Assembly (NCBI GenBank): GCA_005191425.1
Contig: SUPR01000062.1
Coordinates: forward strand, 1 to 21,998
Direction: 5' to 3'
Origin: Candidatus Helarchaeota ASGARD archaeon Hel_GB_B
GTDB lineage: Archaea > Asgardarchaeota > Lokiarchaeia > Helarchaeales > HEL-GB-B
Length of the DNA: 21,998 nt
The notes beneath the pieces were generated by a model, which saw only the letters and a program-made list of their open reading frames with translations, was not told the origin of the DNA and ran no database searches. The translations under genes were made by a program, and so were the position numbers. Shown in pieces: positions 4,530 to 12,111 of the stretch; position 1 is the first letter of the stretch; the number at the start of each line of letters is the position of its first letter.

Positions 4530-5405
4530 TTAAATTAAGTTTGCTATCTTTAGTCCTTTAATTATCCAATCAGAGAACATCTCGGAAACAATTTCTGCTT
4601 TTTCACTAGAAATACCTTTATTAAGCAATTCATTTCCCAACTCATTTTTAATAAAATTTGAGTCAGGGTTCTTCTTCCATTTATTTAGAAAAAAGTTTTT
4701 CCATTCAAAATATTTTGATTTGGCATAATCGGGTAAATTTTTTGCTAAATTACCTGCCAAATAACCAAAATGAGCAATGCAGATATTCTTATAATCAATA
4801 TTCTTTACTTTTTCAAAAGATTGTAATAATTTTTTTTCAGAAAATTCTGGGGGCATAATAGGGCCAAAAAAGATATTTTTAGAAATTTTATACCCTAGCG
4901 AATCGCCTATGAATAAAGTTTTATTTTTTCTATCTAAAATACAGATACTACAATTTGTATGCCCGGGTGTACTAAATATCTCAAGTTCTAAATCGCCCAA
5001 GTTAAGTATATCGCCATCATTTAATGGAATAACATCAGTAATAGGGTCTAATTCAAGGGTATAATTAGGAAACCATTTATTAAACTCATTTGGATTAGCT
5101 AGTGCTTCAAGGCCATCTTTATGAGCCATTATTTCAATATTTGAGATCTTTTTTATGATACTTGAAATTCCACCGCTGTGATCCCAATGAGAATGAGTAG
5201 TAATTAAAATATCTGGTTTCAAATCCATTCCGATTAATTTCTTAGCAACTCTTCTCCCTTCATTTTTACCAGAAGCATCTATTAATACCTTTTTTTTCTT
5301 ACCTACTATTAAAAAACAACTCATTGATTTTTCTGTTCCAAATAAAAGTGAATCTATTAAATATGTATTTTCATTTATTTTTCCTTCTTCTTGAACCCAA
5401 TCCAT
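4530..5405 (-). CDS. Metallo-beta-lactamase fold hydrolase
   Basis: THSHWDHSGG (HxHxDH), TPGHT, LFIGD and AHFG motifs. Confidence 0.9.
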   Translation of the reverse strand: MDWVQEEGKINENTYLIDSLLFGTEKSMSCFLIVGKKKKVLIDASGKNEGRRVAKKLIGMDLKPDILITTHSHWDHSGGISSIIKKISNIEIMAHKDGLEALANPNEFNKWFPNYTLELDPITDVIPLNDGDILNLGDLELEIFSTPGHTNCSICILDRKNKTLFIGDSLGYKISKNIFFGPIMPPEFSEKKLLQSFEKVKNIDYKNICIAHFGYLAGNLAKNLPDYAKSKYFEWKNFFLNKWKKNPDSNFIKNELGNELLNKGISSEKAEIVSEMFSDWIIKGLKIANLI

Positions 5406-5481
5406 TTCAGATCACTAAATTAATATCGTTCAAATAAAACTTTAAAATTTAAAAAAATATGTAAGATACTTAAATAACATA

Positions 5482-7545
5482 TTAAATAACTATTTCTTTA
5501 ACTATTTTATTAATCTCATTCATTTGTTCTTTTATAATTAAATTGTAATTATTTTTGTGTATTTTTTCCTTAATTAATTTTTCACATATTTTCGATAGCT
5601 CTACTAATTTAAGATGTTTTTCGTTTAGAGGGTCAAATATTGGAATAGGAAATTTAAATGGGCGTTTAACGTAATGTCTACTCGATTTAATTAGACTTAA
5701 CTGAAAATTTAAAAATTCTGAATTTAATATAGAACAAAGATAATAGCATTCGTCAATATTTGCAGTTTGGTAATATAATAATGTATAATCAATTATAATA
5801 TTTTTCTTAATTACCGCCGATTTTAACTTATTCCCTGCTTCATTAAATACAACTTTATATAAATCAGGATTTTGGTTAATTAATTTATTTTGGAAGTTAA
5901 TATTTTCCCAGAGGTTTAAAAATTTTGTATTTTCTTTTTTATTTTCACGATAAATCTGATCGATTTTTTTATAAAAGGACTTCATTTTTGGGGGTAAATT
6001 TTCAATTGGAATTTTTTTATAATTCTTATCGATTGGCAATATTACTTTATATAATTTCTTATATGTAAAAGGGAGTAATAGATCCGCTTTTAATACATCA
6101 AATATAAAATTATTTTCTATTTCTATATTTTCATAATATTTATCATTCCATTTAGATTTACTTTTTATTGTAGCTTCTAAATCTTTATTGATAATTGAAA
6201 ATTTGGAATTAACTTTTTTTACTGATGCATATAACAAGGCTCTTGGAAAAAGATCTGCGCCTTTAAATACTTTATCATAATAGAATGAATTTGAAATTTT
6301 TATTAACCTGTTTTTCTCATTAATAGAGATCAACTTTCGGACATTCTCACCTTCAAGATAAGCTGGAACTAATTGAGATTCGTGTATAATTTGTAATTGT
6401 TCATCAAAATATTTAATTTTTATTGGAAACGGTTTTGATGATTCATTAGAATATATTCCATAAAGACAGATGCTTTTCATTTTAAAAAATTTTTTAGAAA
6501 AACTATAAATTTCCAAATTCTTAAACCCGTAGAAATTTCTAAACTTGCTAGATTGAGAACTATTTAAAATATTTGAAGTCATTACAAAAAATATTTCACC
6601 ATTTTTTCGTAAAAAAAGTCTTGGGACTTCATAAAAAAAGACAATTGCCATTTCCAAATTGGAAATATCTTTAGCACTTGGTTTTATTTTGTTAATATCA
6701 GCAATTTTTTTAATTAATTCTTGAAAATTGATAGACTCGATATCTCGATAAACCAGCCAAGGAGGATTACCTATTATTAAATCGACTTTCCCAATTTTTT
6801 TAATAATTTTGTTAGAAGGGTCTAAAGAATTTCCTAAAAAAATATTATCTATAGATTGAATTTCAATTAGTTCACAAAGTATTAATGCCACATTAATTTT
6901 TGAAATTAAACAAGCAATTGGATTAATTTCAATCCCAAATATTTTATTTATGTAATTTTTTTTAATACTTACAGGTAATTTTGCATTTAAAATTTCCTTT
7001 ATTATTTCTATAAGGAAAATACCACTTCCACATGCAGGATCAAGGACTTTAGTTCCGTATTTATATTTTTTCTTTATCATAAAACGAGCTAGAACATCTG
7101 GAGTATAAAATTCACCCATTGAGTGCCTGATTGATTGTGAAACTAATTCTTGATAAAAATTAACTAAAATGGGAGATGATTGAATAGAATATTTACGAAT
7201 TTCATTCCTCACCCATTCGTTTAATTCTAGTACATTAATATACCAATCAAAATTTAATCCTAATATATTAAATTTATTTCCTATATTTAAACCGAATTTC
7301 TCTTCTAGAATAATTCTTGATAGAGTTATTATATAGTGATGGATTATAAATAGATCATTTGTTAAATCTTGAGAATTATATAGTAATTTAAATTTATTAC
7401 GCCATATCTCTTTATTTTTAGAAAATCGTTCGTTATCTTGATTATTTAATATAAATTCCATCAATTTTTTATTAAAATAATTAAATGTCGTAGAATTTAT
7501 TCCAAAAAATTTTATTAATTTTTTTGTATCTAGACTTTCTTTCAT
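5482..7545 (-). CDS. N6-adenine DNA methyltransferase (type IIG/Eco57I-like M and specificity regions)
   Basis: GEFYTP, VLDPACGSGIFL (motif I), IIGNPPW (motif IV), long C-terminal TRD-like region. ATG at 7545 (track start is TTG 7560). Confidence 0.85.
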   Translation of the reverse strand: MKESLDTKKLIKFFGINSTTFNYFNKKLMEFILNNQDNERFSKNKEIWRNKFKLLYNSQDLTNDLFIIHHYIITLSRIILEEKFGLNIGNKFNILGLNFDWYINVLELNEWVRNEIRKYSIQSSPILVNFYQELVSQSIRHSMGEFYTPDVLARFMIKKKYKYGTKVLDPACGSGIFLIEIIKEILNAKLPVSIKKNYINKIFGIEINPIACLISKINVALILCELIEIQSIDNIFLGNSLDPSNKIIKKIGKVDLIIGNPPWLVYRDIESINFQELIKKIADINKIKPSAKDISNLEMAIVFFYEVPRLFLRKNGEIFFVMTSNILNSSQSSKFRNFYGFKNLEIYSFSKKFFKMKSICLYGIYSNESSKPFPIKIKYFDEQLQIIHESQLVPAYLEGENVRKLISINEKNRLIKISNSFYYDKVFKGADLFPRALLYASVKKVNSKFSIINKDLEATIKSKSKWNDKYYENIEIENNFIFDVLKADLLLPFTYKKLYKVILPIDKNYKKIPIENLPPKMKSFYKKIDQIYRENKKENTKFLNLWENINFQNKLINQNPDLYKVVFNEAGNKLKSAVIKKNIIIDYTLLYYQTANIDECYYLCSILNSEFLNFQLSLIKSSRHYVKRPFKFPIPIFDPLNEKHLKLVELSKICEKLIKEKIHKNNYNLIIKEQMNEINKIVKEIVI

Positions 7546-7878
7546 GGGAATATTGCCCAAATATTTTATTTAATATAAACTAAAATAAACTAAAAAGTAG
7601 AATTATTTAAGATTTTTGAGATCTTTTTAATAATAGTATTAATTGATTCAATATTTAGAATTTAAATGTCCAATTATATTTAAATAAGTCATATTTCCGA
7701 ATTTTTTTGCTTAAATTAAGCGAAAAAGTTTTAATAAATTTAATAATTTTTTATAATTTTGTTAATTTTTTAAAATAGATATTAATTTTTTATGATTAGA
7801 CTTTAATTTAAGAAAAATAAAATTTATTTTCTATCATTAATTTAATTTTAAATATTTTTGAGAAGAATTAATTTATAT

Positions 7879-7920
7879 AATTAGTCAATAATATTATAAA
7901 TTAGTCAATAAAATATTATA
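7879..7920. repeat. Two ~20-bp imperfect direct repeats (AATTAGTCAATA...ATATTATA)
   Basis: TTAGTCAATA at 7881 and 7901; the second copy runs into the 15-bp array. Confidence 0.6.
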
Positions 7921-7985
7921 ACATTAAATATTGTAACATTAAATATTGTAACATTAAATATTATAACATCAATTATTGTATCATT
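7911..7985. repeat. Tandem repeat, 5 x 15 bp, consensus AAATATTGTAACATT
   Basis: Units start at 7911, 7926, 7941, 7956 and 7971 with 1, 0, 0, 2 and 2 mismatches to consensus. Confidence 0.9.
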
Positions 7986-7997
7986 TAATACCTATAA

Positions 7998-10016
7998 GTG
8001 GGTGTAATGAAAAAAAGTCCTTTTAAAAAATTTATTTCAATAAAAGCCAAGCATTATCCGAGAGACCGTATTTCAATTGTATATGGAGATAAAAGAATAA
8101 CTTGGAAAGAGCTCAATTCGAATATTAATAGATTAGCAAATGGTCTAAAAAGTTTTGGGATTAAAAAAGGTGATATAATAGCTTTAATTCTTTACAACTC
8201 TCCAGAATTTATTGAATCAAGCTTTGCGTGCCAATCATTGGGAGCTATACCTGCTCCAATTAATTATAGACTTACTGGAAACGAATTGTTATATATAATA
8301 GATAATTGTGATGCTAAAATACTTATTTTTGATGAAGATTTATTACAGACTATATTAAAAATTAAAGATAAATTATCGAAGATAAAGAAATATATTATAA
8401 TTGGTACTGAAGATAATATTCCCGAGAATATGGTCAATTATTATAGACTAATAAATAGGAATAAAGACAAAGAATTAAAAATAAAAATGTCATATGATGA
8501 TGTCGGTTTAATATTATATACTGGAGGTACTACGGGGATGCCAAAAGGTGTAGTTTTAACATATAACAACTTAATTACAAATATAGAAATGGTCGGAGTT
8601 TTTATGGCTACAGCATTACCGCCTGTTTCAAAACTTGGAAATAGAGATTATGAAAAGAGGTCAGTGGACAAAAAGATTCAAAATGCAATGAAAATATTGA
8701 GTGGTCTCGGAGTTTTCCAGGCAATTAGCGAAGATGAAAGGTTATTAAAGAAAATATCTGTAATCGAACTACTATCTGATAAAAAATTAAAAATTCCGCC
8801 ATTAGCGGTAACTGGAAATCCTGAAGGAGATATTGATTTATATTATGGTATACCGGACCATTGGGATATTTATACAAAAGTTTTTCTTGGTAATGAAATT
8901 AGAGACCTTGCTGAAAAGTCGCCACTATCATATTCCAAGCGTGGAAAATTGAAGAATATTTTTCCATTAATATGGCGTTATTTAATTGGTGGATCAAAAG
9001 GAATTAATATTAAGGGACCATTAAGACTTAGATTTAAATTAATTTCAGCCTCCTCCAAAACTCCATCACCAGATTCTATTATTAATTTACTACTTTTACC
9101 ACCATTATTTCATTCTGCGGGTTATATTTTCTTAGTACAATGGCTGATGTTCGGTTGTAAATTAGTAATTCCTTCCAGTAAAAGATTTAATCCAAAAGAA
9201 GTTATTGATTATTTACAAAATGAAAAAATTCATATAACTTTAATGGTACCGACTATGTGGAAACGAATAATTGAATATCCTGATATTGAAAATTATAATT
9301 TTCAAGATTTGAGGATCGCGATGTCAGGTGGAGCTTTATTAAAAGGAAAATATAAAAAACAAATGATCAAATTGTTTCCAAATGCACTTATCTTTGATGC
9401 ATTGGGACAAACTGAAATGTCTCCAATTGTGAGCGTCAAACTTGATGGCGATATCAACAGTGTTAAAGATAGAAGCGTTGGAAAAATGATAACTGGACTT
9501 GAATACAAAATAGTCGATGAAAATGGTAATGAAGTACCTGATGGAACAATAGGTGAATTATGTTATAAAAGTCCCACGATTATGAGAGAATATTATAAAG
9601 ACCCTAATAAAACTAAAGAGTCCATGACTCCAGATGGATTTTTCTATTCCGGAGATTTAGCATATCGTGATAAAGATGGCGAAGTATACATTGTAGATAG
9701 AAAGAAATCTTGTATTAATACTGGTGGTGAAAAAGTATATCCTATGGAAGTAGAAGAATGCTTAATGGAACATCCTAAAATAGAAAATGTATGTGTTATT
9801 GGAGTCCCAAATGATGAATGGGGCTCTATCGTAAGAGCTGTTATAAAGTTAAAAGAGGGCGAGACTGCTACTGAGCAAGAGATTATCGAATTTTGCAAAG
9901 GTAAAATTGCTAGCTTTAAAAAGCCGCGAAGTGTAATATTTATAGATGAATTTCCTGTTTCTCCAGTTGGAAAAATATTAAGAGGAAAGGTCCAAGAAAA
10001 ATTCGGAACACCATAA
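7998..10016 (+). CDS. Long-chain acyl-CoA synthetase (AMP-binding) with a ~150-aa internal insertion
   Basis: YTGGTTGMPKG, PPLFH, LGQTE, FFYSGDLA, DRKKSCINTGGEKVYP and GKILR motifs. Start is GTG 7998 or ATG 8007. Confidence 0.9.
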   Translation: MGVMKKSPFKKFISIKAKHYPRDRISIVYGDKRITWKELNSNINRLANGLKSFGIKKGDIIALILYNSPEFIESSFACQSLGAIPAPINYRLTGNELLYIIDNCDAKILIFDEDLLQTILKIKDKLSKIKKYIIIGTEDNIPENMVNYYRLINRNKDKELKIKMSYDDVGLILYTGGTTGMPKGVVLTYNNLITNIEMVGVFMATALPPVSKLGNRDYEKRSVDKKIQNAMKILSGLGVFQAISEDERLLKKISVIELLSDKKLKIPPLAVTGNPEGDIDLYYGIPDHWDIYTKVFLGNEIRDLAEKSPLSYSKRGKLKNIFPLIWRYLIGGSKGINIKGPLRLRFKLISASSKTPSPDSIINLLLLPPLFHSAGYIFLVQWLMFGCKLVIPSSKRFNPKEVIDYLQNEKIHITLMVPTMWKRIIEYPDIENYNFQDLRIAMSGGALLKGKYKKQMIKLFPNALIFDALGQTEMSPIVSVKLDGDINSVKDRSVGKMITGLEYKIVDENGNEVPDGTIGELCYKSPTIMREYYKDPNKTKESMTPDGFFYSGDLAYRDKDGEVYIVDRKKSCINTGGEKVYPMEVEECLMEHPKIENVCVIGVPNDEWGSIVRAVIKLKEGETATEQEIIEFCKGKIASFKKPRSVIFIDEFPVSPVGKILRGKVQEKFGTP

Positions 10017-10052
10017 ATCCTAAAAATTGATAGAAATAAAAAATTTTTTAAT

Positions 10053-10535
10053 TTAAATTTGTTTTATAATAGTTTGCGTATTAATTTTATTTATTAGACT
10101 ATTATATACTGGACAATGCATCTCTGTTTTTTGAATTAATTCTTGAATTCTTTCATTAGATTCCGAACTATTAATTTTGACTTCAATAGTAATTTTCTGA
10201 AATTGAGCAGGTATTTTTCCTTCCATATCTAATAAACCCCAAATGTCAATGATCCCACTTATATGAATTTCAGCTGAATTTACTTTTATTTTTAATATTT
10301 CGCTCCAAACTTGTAATGTGGACAATAGACACCCACCTATAGAGCTAAGAAACAACTCCGCTGGTGAAGGGCCTTCATTTTTTCCACCAATAACTTTATC
10401 TTCATCTAAAATAAATTTATGGCGTCCTGCCTTAACATCAATCCTAAATTTCTCGGTTTTCTTTAATTTGACTTTTAATTTATGCTCTGCAAGTCTTGGA
10501 TCTTTTTCAAATATTTCTAACATTTTTTCAAACAT
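10053..10535 (-). CDS. OsmC-family protein
   Basis: GGKNEGPSPAELFLSSIGGC and HCPVYNSL, with both conserved Cys present. Confidence 0.85.
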   Translation of the reverse strand: MFEKMLEIFEKDPRLAEHKLKVKLKKTEKFRIDVKAGRHKFILDEDKVIGGKNEGPSPAELFLSSIGGCLLSTLQVWSEILKIKVNSAEIHISGIIDIWGLLDMEGKIPAQFQKITIEVKINSSESNERIQELIQKTEMHCPVYNSLINKINTQTIIKQI

Positions 10536-10983
10536 TTTTTATTCACAAAAGCTTTTAATTTGAGAAAATAAAATCTTAATCAATATTTTATATTTTTTAT
10601 AAGATTGATGTGGTAAAATTAAAAATTTTTTGATGTTAAAATTCAAATTTAAACAATTTCTTTATTAAAATGCATTTTTTCTTTTTATTTTGCAAAATTT
10701 TCTCTTAAAATTTATAAAGGATTTATTTTAAAAAGAATTAAAACTATAGATGTTTTAAGCAAATCTAGAATTTATTCCAAAATATTAGATTGTAATAACT
10801 AATTTTTAATGTATAAATATTTAATCCTTAATTTAAATAAGAAATATTTTATTTTAAATAATGAAATTTGCCTTTTAAATTAAAATTAACTTGAATATGG
10901 CTTAATATCTCTTTAATTTATTTTTAAAAATATAAAATTAAAATTTTAAAATAGATTTTAAATAAATTTATTTTAATAATCTT

Positions 10984-12111
10984 ATGGACTTTGTAAAATT
11001 TGGAGTAATAGGACTTGGTGGAGCTTGGCAATTTCATAAACCATTTTTTATTAATAACTCTAAAGCTAAACTCATTTCAGTTTATGATATCGATATAAAG
11101 AAGTCAAAAAGAACTGCAAAATTTTTTAATGCAGATTATTATGGGTCGCTTCAGGACTTTTTTAATAGTGATATAGATGCTGTATTAATATTGGTACCTC
11201 ATTATTTACACAAGAAATTTGTTATATCAGCAGCTCAAGAAGGTAAACATATACTTTGTGAAAAACCAATGGCTATTTTGCTTGAAGATTGTGATGAAAT
11301 GATTAGGGCTACTAACAATGCAGGGGTTAAATTTATGGTAGCTGAGAACCACCGATTTTTACCAGCTCATAATTATATATTTGATATAATTAAAAAAGGA
11401 TTAATAGGTGATATTTTTTTAATTAGAGCCTACGAAGGAGTTTATGAGGTTCCTGCTCTAATGAAATCAGAATCTTGGAAAGGTCATCCAATTATGGCTG
11501 GAGGAGGTGCATTAATGGACATGGGAGTTCATAAATTTGCTGTACTTAATTGGATTTTAAATGATAGTATTAATAAAGCATTTGCATGGATCACAAAACA
11601 ATGTACTAATTTAAAAGAAAAAGCAGAGGATAATGCAATGATATTTCTTAAATATAATAAAGGGACTATTGCAGAAATAACCATTAGCTTTACAGTTGTT
11701 TCAGAAATTACTAATTCATTAGAAATATATGGAACAAAAGGAACAATTCTTGAAAATCATATGTGGAAAAATCCAATTAAAATACAATCATTTCATAAAG
11801 AAATGGGTAAAAATAAAGGTAAATGGTTTGAACCCTATGTAGAACATGGGCCATTTCCAAAATATTATTTAATATCGGCTAAAAATGAAGATGAACATTT
11901 CACCAATTGTATTCTTAAGAATGAAAAGCCAGACTTTGACCCCAAAGAATCAAGAGAAGCTATTGCAGATGCTTTATTATGTTATTTATCCGTAAAAAAT
12001 GGAAAATCAACAACGATGAATGAATTTTTAGAAGTTTATAATAAAGAGGGCACAATATCAATTTTAGATGGATTAGAAAAGTTTGTCCAAAATAACTACA
12101 ATCTAATCTAA
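10984..12111 (+). CDS. Gfo/Idh/MocA-family oxidoreductase
   Basis: GVIGLGG, HILCEKPMA and GGGALMDMGVH motifs. Confidence 0.9.
   Translation: MDFVKFGVIGLGGAWQFHKPFFINNSKAKLISVYDIDIKKSKRTAKFFNADYYGSLQDFFNSDIDAVLILVPHYLHKKFVISAAQEGKHILCEKPMAILLEDCDEMIRATNNAGVKFMVAENHRFLPAHNYIFDIIKKGLIGDIFLIRAYEGVYEVPALMKSESWKGHPIMAGGGALMDMGVHKFAVLNWILNDSINKAFAWITKQCTNLKEKAEDNAMIFLKYNKGTIAEITISFTVVSEITNSLEIYGTKGTILENHMWKNPIKIQSFHKEMGKNKGKWFEPYVEHGPFPKYYLISAKNEDEHFTNCILKNEKPDFDPKESREAIADALLCYLSVKNGKSTTMNEFLEVYNKEGTISILDGLEKFVQNNYNLI

Follow-up and report, generated by a model that had tools for sequence, protein, structure and literature searches.

An acyl-CoA synthetase of a Helarchaeota archaeon with a predicted SCP2-type domain inside its adenylation domain

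What is the role of a segment of about 155 residues that interrupts the adenylation domain of an otherwise ordinary acyl-CoA synthetase? The question is raised by a gene on a stretch of 21,998 nucleotides from the Candidatus Helarchaeota archaeon Hel_GB_B (positions 1 to 21,998 of contig SUPR01000062.1), which is referred to here as the window. The original prediction, made from the sequence alone, described the segment as a lipid-binding domain resembling sterol carrier protein 2 (SCP2) that is inserted in the adenylation core of the enzyme next to the acyl pocket. Few enzymes are as well studied as the acyl-CoA synthetases of the ANL superfamily. Accessory domains of SCP2 fold are known in the form of terminal fusions, in MFE-2, SCPx, alkylsulfatases, Eis acetyltransferases and cyclopropane fatty acid synthase, and also as UbiJ. 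To our knowledge, no case has been described in which a whole domain of lipid-carrier fold is inserted in an adenylation domain at the acyl-pocket exit, and an SCP2-fold insertion in an ANL adenylation domain was not found in the full-text literature (open-access papers only). The analysis described below favors, as the probable explanation, an intact ligase in which a basic domain of SCP2 fold sits at the mouth of the acyl pocket and serves both to dock on lipid and to hold the substrate tail.

The insert and its predicted fold

The start of the P-loop and the A4 motif were separated by 194 residues in the window protein, compared with 38-44 residues in canonical enzymes (124 relatives). Counted from the proline of the P-loop (Pro182) to the histidine of the PPLFH motif (His372), with residues numbered from the GTG at 7998 here and below unless ATG numbering is stated, the distance was 190 residues, as had been predicted. 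Both strings that had been quoted from the insert were found in the translation, and its measured ends (Table 1) lay within 5 nt of the predicted 8611-9075; a profile of the insert family matched 8616-9077 of the window. In an alignment with FadD5 of M. tuberculosis (8r2q), query residues 31-199 corresponded to chain residues 65-230 and query residues 368-670 to chain residues 248-546, leaving about 168 query residues (199-368) opposite about 17 residues of FadD5 (chain 230-248). This is a true in-frame insertion of about 150-155 amino acids, located in a surface loop of the large N-terminal domain, between the helix that follows the P-loop and the strand leading into A4, where canonical relatives have about 15-20 residues.

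Outside of the insert, the protein has the features expected of a working ligase. The AMP-binding domain PF00501 scored 275.4 bits (cut-off 29.9), split into a match to residues 16-199 and another from about residue 365 onward, and the C-terminal domain AMP-binding_C scored 69.1 bits (cut-off 24.5). The core motifs A3, A4 (aromatic-His), A5, A7 (SGD), A8 (Arg) and A10 (Lys) were all present in the translation, and all were invariant in the family (110-sequence alignment), which argues for a ligase of the active type rather than a degenerate paralog. The top NCBIfam model was the long-chain-fatty-acid--CoA ligase NF004837 (PRK06187), matched in two stretches separated by the insert with 450.4 bits, which is below its curated cut-off of 476 bits, and the best solved relative was FadD5 (E 1e-81, phmmer). 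Judged by its sequence, the gene product is an intact long-chain-type fatty-acyl-CoA synthetase of the ANL superfamily, nearest to PRK06187 and FadD5. It shares the two-domain core and the catalytic motifs with the PRK06187 ligases, FadD13 (3R44) and FadD5 (8R2Q), but at the position where these have a short loop it has what is predicted to be a folded domain. The core is that of an ordinary FadD-type ligase, and what sets the protein apart is the SCP2-fold domain predicted to lie within its adenylation domain.

An AlphaFold2 model of the full-length protein, built with the 110-sequence alignment, had a mean predicted local distance difference test score (pLDDT) of 91.6 and a pTM of 0.91, with values of 76-96 per 10-residue block in the insert. 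When the insert was modeled alone with a 66-sequence alignment, the pLDDT was 74.5 and the topology was as in the full-length model. In ATG numbering, the model of the insert begins with three helices (219-231, 235-242 and 244-247), which are followed by strands 1-4 (250-256, 266-270, 276-280 and 288-293), two long helices (299-309 and 311-327), a last strand (333-336) and a further helix (339-349). The predicted model therefore has the layout of the SCP2 fold, in which N-terminal helices precede a five-stranded sheet that is covered by a C-terminal helix.

The structure search that had been proposed as a check on this assignment was carried out in several libraries. When the insert-alone model was compared with the PDB by Foldseek, the first 31 matches were all SCP2 proteins (E 9e-5 to 8e-3, probability 0.9-1.0), among them UbiJ-SCP2, the SCP2 proteins of yeast, insect, rabbit and human, the SCP2-like domain of MFE-2 and the archaeal protein AF1534, and the matches that followed were alkylsulfatase chains with a C-terminal SCP2-like domain. 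The model thus matched only SCP2-fold structures, the opposite of an insert that does not fold as SCP2. Re-ranking with VIA-align placed UbiJ-SCP2 (6h6n) first, with a Z-score of 6.6 and a root-mean-square deviation of 3.6 over 107 of 126 residues; the others had Z-scores of 4-5.6. An independent VIA-align search of 48,161 representative chains, made without Foldseek, gave SCP2-fold proteins at all of ranks 1-17, with the first unrelated chain at Z 3.0 and only 65 chains attaining Z 2. The structure matches in the ESM Atlas were SCP2-bearing clusters, among them those of SCP2D1, HxlR-SCP2, MFE-2, fungal SCP-2 and the SCP2 domain of stomatin-like protein 1 (TM-scores 0.44-0.50). Taken from the model, an SCP2-type fold for the insert is very probable.

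Table 1. Features of the acyl-CoA synthetase gene in the window
Feature	Position	Strand	Remarks
Acyl-CoA synthetase gene (ANL superfamily)	7998..10016	+	672 aa from GTG 7998; likely true start ATG 8007, 669 aa
A3 / P-loop TGGTTGMPKG	8520..8549	+	aa 175-184; invariant in 110-sequence alignment
Insert with predicted SCP2 fold	8616..9080	+	aa 207-361 (GTG numbering), 204-358 (ATG numbering); net charge +10
A4 motif PPLFH	9099..9113	+	aa 368-372; canonical core picks up again here
A5 motif GQTE	9405..9416	+	aa 470-473; G, T and E invariant or nearly so in two alignments
C-terminal ANL subdomain PF13193	9747..9974	+	aa 584-659; ends with A10 catalytic lysine K659 (9972-9974)

The start codon given in the table as likely was preferred because all close homologues begin with MKKSPF, the sequence that follows from the ATG at 8007.

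Position at the acyl pocket and possible role

The equivalent region of FadD13 suggests where the insert would lie in relation to the active site. In that enzyme a large hydrophobic pocket extends from the active site to a surface patch rich in arginines and is capped by a lid loop, and Arg195, Arg197 and Arg199 are part of the positive patch (PMC8253482). The phmmer offsets paired FadD13 chain index 214 with query residue 365, and we infer that this index is native residue 200, just after the three arginines, provided that 14 of the chain's 517 residues are an N-terminal tag. The insert would then occupy the loop equivalent to the one that carries Arg195, Arg197 and Arg199, and the acyl pocket would therefore most likely have the SCP2-fold domain at its distal mouth.

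The insert is also strongly basic. The inserts of the family had a mean net charge of +8.5 (range 0 to +17) and an isoelectric point of 9.7, compared with an average of -4.6 for the rest of the protein and -12 for stand-alone SCP2 domains of Asgard archaea. Positions conserved as hydrophobic were found in the strands of the insert and in helices 224-246 and 315-326. Under the favored explanation, the SCP2-fold domain most likely takes the place of the basic lid region at the pocket's outer end. Through its basic face, the domain would there let the enzyme dock on anionic membranes or other lipid surfaces, and it would bind or shield the hydrophobic tail of the substrate, a long and poorly soluble carboxylic acid, while this is adenylated and thioesterified. 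The insert would in this way act as a built-in lipid carrier or as an extension of the pocket, and it probably helps very hydrophobic acids to enter the enzyme. A lipid-binding role is plausible, and the candidate substrates are very-long-chain, branched, isoprenoid or alkane-derived acids.

FadD13 is thought to accept substrates longer than itself by docking on the membrane. If the inserted domain does bind lipid, it would be a natural answer to the problem of how a soluble enzyme takes substrates longer than itself, and it would also offer a way to engineer ligases for very hydrophobic acids.

A somewhat unlikely alternative is that the insert serves chiefly for docking, as a basic tether to anionic membranes or to a partner protein, and lacks a lipid cavity of its own feeding the active site. 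Scaffolding is a known function of SCP2-fold domains, as in the case of UbiJ in the Ubi metabolon, and the best structural match to the insert was UbiJ-SCP2. The strong and conserved basic charge, so different from that of the stand-alone SCP2 domains, also points in this direction, as does the membership of the equivalent FadD13 loop in a membrane-binding arginine patch (PMC8253482). However, the strands and the final helix have their hydrophobic positions in the pattern of SCP2, with conservation across the family, and no conserved partner gene was found when the neighbors of 27 loci were clustered. Docking and the hand-over of lipid are, moreover, mutually compatible, and a domain that does both at the mouth of the acyl pocket remains the preferred reading.

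Relation to SCP2 domains

Whether the insert is related to SCP2 by descent is a separate question from its fold. The SCP2 identity that had been predicted is supported at the level of fold by the top matches of Foldseek, VIA-align and the ESM Atlas, whereas the signal in the sequence was weak, and the SCP2 model of Pfam gave nothing significant. The insert family was aligned by hhalign with 20 stand-alone SCP2 domains from this and related Asgard genomes, and the two profiles matched with P 4.3e-4 over 63 columns in topological register. The elements in register were a hairpin with the pattern E-G-K-hydrophobic-K-hydrophobic-x-x-G, a strand with the pattern D-hydrophobic-x-hydrophobic, and G-I-K-I-x-G followed by the last helix. 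Two of these correspond to the strings singled out in the original prediction, namely the hairpin (E-G-x-x-x-L-x-x-G) and the G-I-K-I-x-G strand with its helix, and both aligned with the equivalent elements of SCP2.

Comparison with the domains of PF02036 (SCP2, the C-terminal domain of MFE-2 (1IKT), SCPx and UbiJ-SCP2 (6H6N)) showed the same alpha/beta fold and order of elements, with agreement also in the G-x-hydrophobic-K-hydrophobic-x-G strand and the helix that follows. These domains are likewise attached to lipid-metabolizing enzymes for the handling of hydrophobic ligands. Unlike them, the insert is internal instead of terminal and basic instead of acidic, and it has no significant match to the hidden Markov model of the family. 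Other SCP2-like accessory domains were among the structural matches with Z-scores of 3.5-5.3, namely those of the alkylsulfatases SdsA1 and Pisa1 (C-terminal), of the Eis-type GNAT acetyltransferases (C-terminal) and of cyclopropane fatty acid synthase (N-terminal). They provide precedents for an SCP2-fold module that aids the recruitment of hydrophobic substrates, although their catalytic domains are of other kinds and all are terminal fusions, whereas the insert of the window protein is located within the catalytic domain.

Several observations weigh against a lipid-handling domain derived from SCP2. The TM-scores of 0.4-0.6 and Z-scores of at most 6.6 are in a range where shared arrangements occur without homology, and the insert exceeds SCP2 by about 30-40 residues, mainly in the form of two long additional helices that lie between strands 4 and 5. 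The PF02036 model had no match in residues 195-375 of the window protein at E up to 1, and when it was compared with the 66 family inserts, only 2 were matched, at E of about 0.14, which is the level of noise. A profile search of the PDB sequences found no SCP2 protein, only chance matches (uL13 and a membrane fusion protein) at E >0.07, and the probability that hhalign assigned to the SCP2 match was only 34%. In addition, there is no fixed lipid operon: no family was found in more than 4 loci when the neighbors of the 27 loci were clustered.

These observations could be accommodated if the resemblance to SCP2 were convergent, or generic to small two-layer alpha/beta domains, and the insert were a lineage-specific lid or regulatory subdomain unrelated to the lipid carriers. 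This is consistent with the moderate Z- and TM-scores, with the lack of significant matches in the Pfam and PDB sequence searches and with the medium confidence of the insert-alone model. It is nonetheless unlikely, given that the top matches in three independent structure libraries were all of SCP2 fold and spanned the whole domain, that there was a clear gap to unrelated folds (Z 6.6 compared with 3.0), and that the profile-profile comparison, a test specified beforehand, brought the motifs into register. The insert is probably a very divergent homologue of SCP2.

Searches for closer relatives of the insert yielded the same architecture again. An exhaustive phmmer search of 1.84 billion representatives, with the insert as the sole query, found only 4 proteins, all with the same architecture and position, and no stand-alone or differently fused homologue; a language-model search of the ESM Atlas with the insert gave no usable match. 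Stand-alone genes with PF02036 matches were abundant in these Asgard genomes, with 9 matches in the genome of the window (E up to 0.001) and up to 18 in its relatives (31 genomes scanned). Among the matches listed, all 7 from this genome were on contigs other than that of the window. Several of the stand-alone SCP2 genes were arranged in tandem, for example at 4579-6810 of another contig of the same genome (G000:C105).

Distribution and genomic context

The original prediction had also raised the question of how widely the architecture is distributed. A search with the whole protein found the long insert in about 65 protein clusters (90% identity) of 636-687 amino acids, most of them labeled Helarchaeota, Lokiarchaeota or Promethearchaeota, together with a "Halobacteria archaeon" and a "bacterium". 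The genome of the window (3.5 Mb, 94% complete) encoded three insert-bearing paralogs, and insert ligases were found in all seven genomes of its order, in 2-4 copies each. In an even sample of the phylum, the insert was present in only 5 of 301 genomes. The insert thus marks a conserved, multi-copy family of enzymes in the Helarchaeota and Lokiarchaeia; the family is presently annotated only as "AMP-binding protein", and the inserted module is annotated in no database, Pfam included.

One insert ligase (P0009, on the ENA contig L031) is labeled "Candidatus Deferrimicrobium sp." by NCBI. Its contig has a GC content of 36%, and over 9.7 kb its sequence was 99.99% identical to that of a contig from a Helarchaeales genome (L040, G002:C76). 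One of the two bins is probably wrong, and the apparent bacterial occurrence is therefore doubtful.

A quick phylogenetic tree of the core was inferred with FastTree after removal of the insert columns. A branch with 99% support separated all of the insertion-bearing proteins from the canonical enzymes. The long-insert proteins made up one clade of 59 and a few lineages that grouped with proteins having a shorter insert. These shorter-insert relatives (P0069-P0097), of about 550-605 amino acids and mainly from Deltaproteobacteria and Pseudomonadota, have an apparently helical insert of about 75 residues at the same site, and they nest among the long-insert forms, of which they may be trimmed derivatives. 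The most economical reading, offered tentatively, is that the long insert arose once and was later trimmed in one sub-lineage.

That the insert stems from a chimeric assembly or a frameshift, or that it is an intein or a mobile insertion, is vanishingly unlikely, because it is in frame, has neither intein motifs nor Pfam matches (residues 195-375, E up to 1), is kept at 15-70% identity over 66 protein clusters from many samples, occurs in three paralogs of this genome and in syntenic orthologous loci, and folds together with the core at high confidence in AlphaFold2.

The genes around the synthetase in the window encode a restriction-modification methylase, OsmC, an oxidoreductase of the GFO/IDH/MocA family, a HEAT-repeat protein and NMO, and are uninformative as to its function. 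The orthologous locus on a 527-kb Helarchaeota contig was syntenic, with Lactamase_B, the synthetase, a convergent OsmC gene, GFO/IDH/MocA, HEAT and NMO. In two genera of the Helarchaeales (L036 G004:C321 and L039 G002:C106), genes for an aldehyde:ferredoxin oxidoreductase (about 582 amino acids) and an extended short-chain dehydrogenase/reductase (about 383 amino acids, of the epimerase/3-beta-hydroxysteroid dehydrogenase type) adjoin the insert ligase genes, and in the first of these a second ligase gene fragment flanks the pair. On a haloarchaeal contig with 70% GC (L027), a homologous dehydrogenase/reductase gene with NAD_binding_4 matches (9968-11035) is translationally coupled to the insert ligase. 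Glycyl-radical enzymes (PFL-like plus Gly_radical, 807-887 amino acids), one of them with an activase, were encoded less than 3 kb from insert ligases on a bacterial contig (L030, 10845-13508) and on a Helarchaeota contig (L032, 3915-6338), the only two independent contexts in which they were found.

In Helarchaeota that bear an alkyl-CoM reductase, the insert ligases could be imagined to channel acids that are alkane-derived or otherwise very hydrophobic into beta-oxidation. The route would lead from alkyl-CoM through the alcohol and the aldehyde to the acid, by way of an aldehyde:ferredoxin oxidoreductase, and then to the acyl-CoA, with the insert ligase at the last step and its built-in SCP2 domain handling the water-insoluble intermediates. 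The pairing of the oxidoreductase and the extended dehydrogenase/reductase with insert ligases in two genera counts for this proposal. So does the presence, within the order, of 2-4 insert ligases in each of the 7 genomes and of the alpha subunit of methyl-coenzyme M reductase (MCR) in 6 of them. Members of the order other than the genome of the window have up to four MCR-alpha matches each, several of 70-90 bits. The MCR-alpha-like protein in the genome of the window (G000:C103:30835-31227, in a 609-aa frame) scored only 36 bits against PF02249, which fits a divergent alkyl-CoM reductase of the Helarchaeota type. Counted against the proposal is the occurrence of the insert family in a haloarchaeon, a bacterium and three Lokiarchaeia genomes without MCR. 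In the phylum sample MCR was confined to the order of the window, so the association of MCR with insert ligases is not phylogenetically independent. A role in the activation of alkane-derived acids is conceivable but considered very unlikely. A strict link of the insert ligases to alkyl-CoM reductase was rejected on account of the three carriers that lack MCR alpha.

The base composition of the window is about 25% GC. Upstream of the synthetase gene, at 7911-7990, there is a tandem array of 5.3 copies of a 15-bp unit (consensus AAATATTGTAACATT, with a TGTAACA core) that ends 17 nt before the ATG. The array is absent upstream of the orthologous gene on the 527-kb Helarchaeota contig (L025). Just upstream of it in the window is a second repeat, of 20 bp, at 7869-7926.

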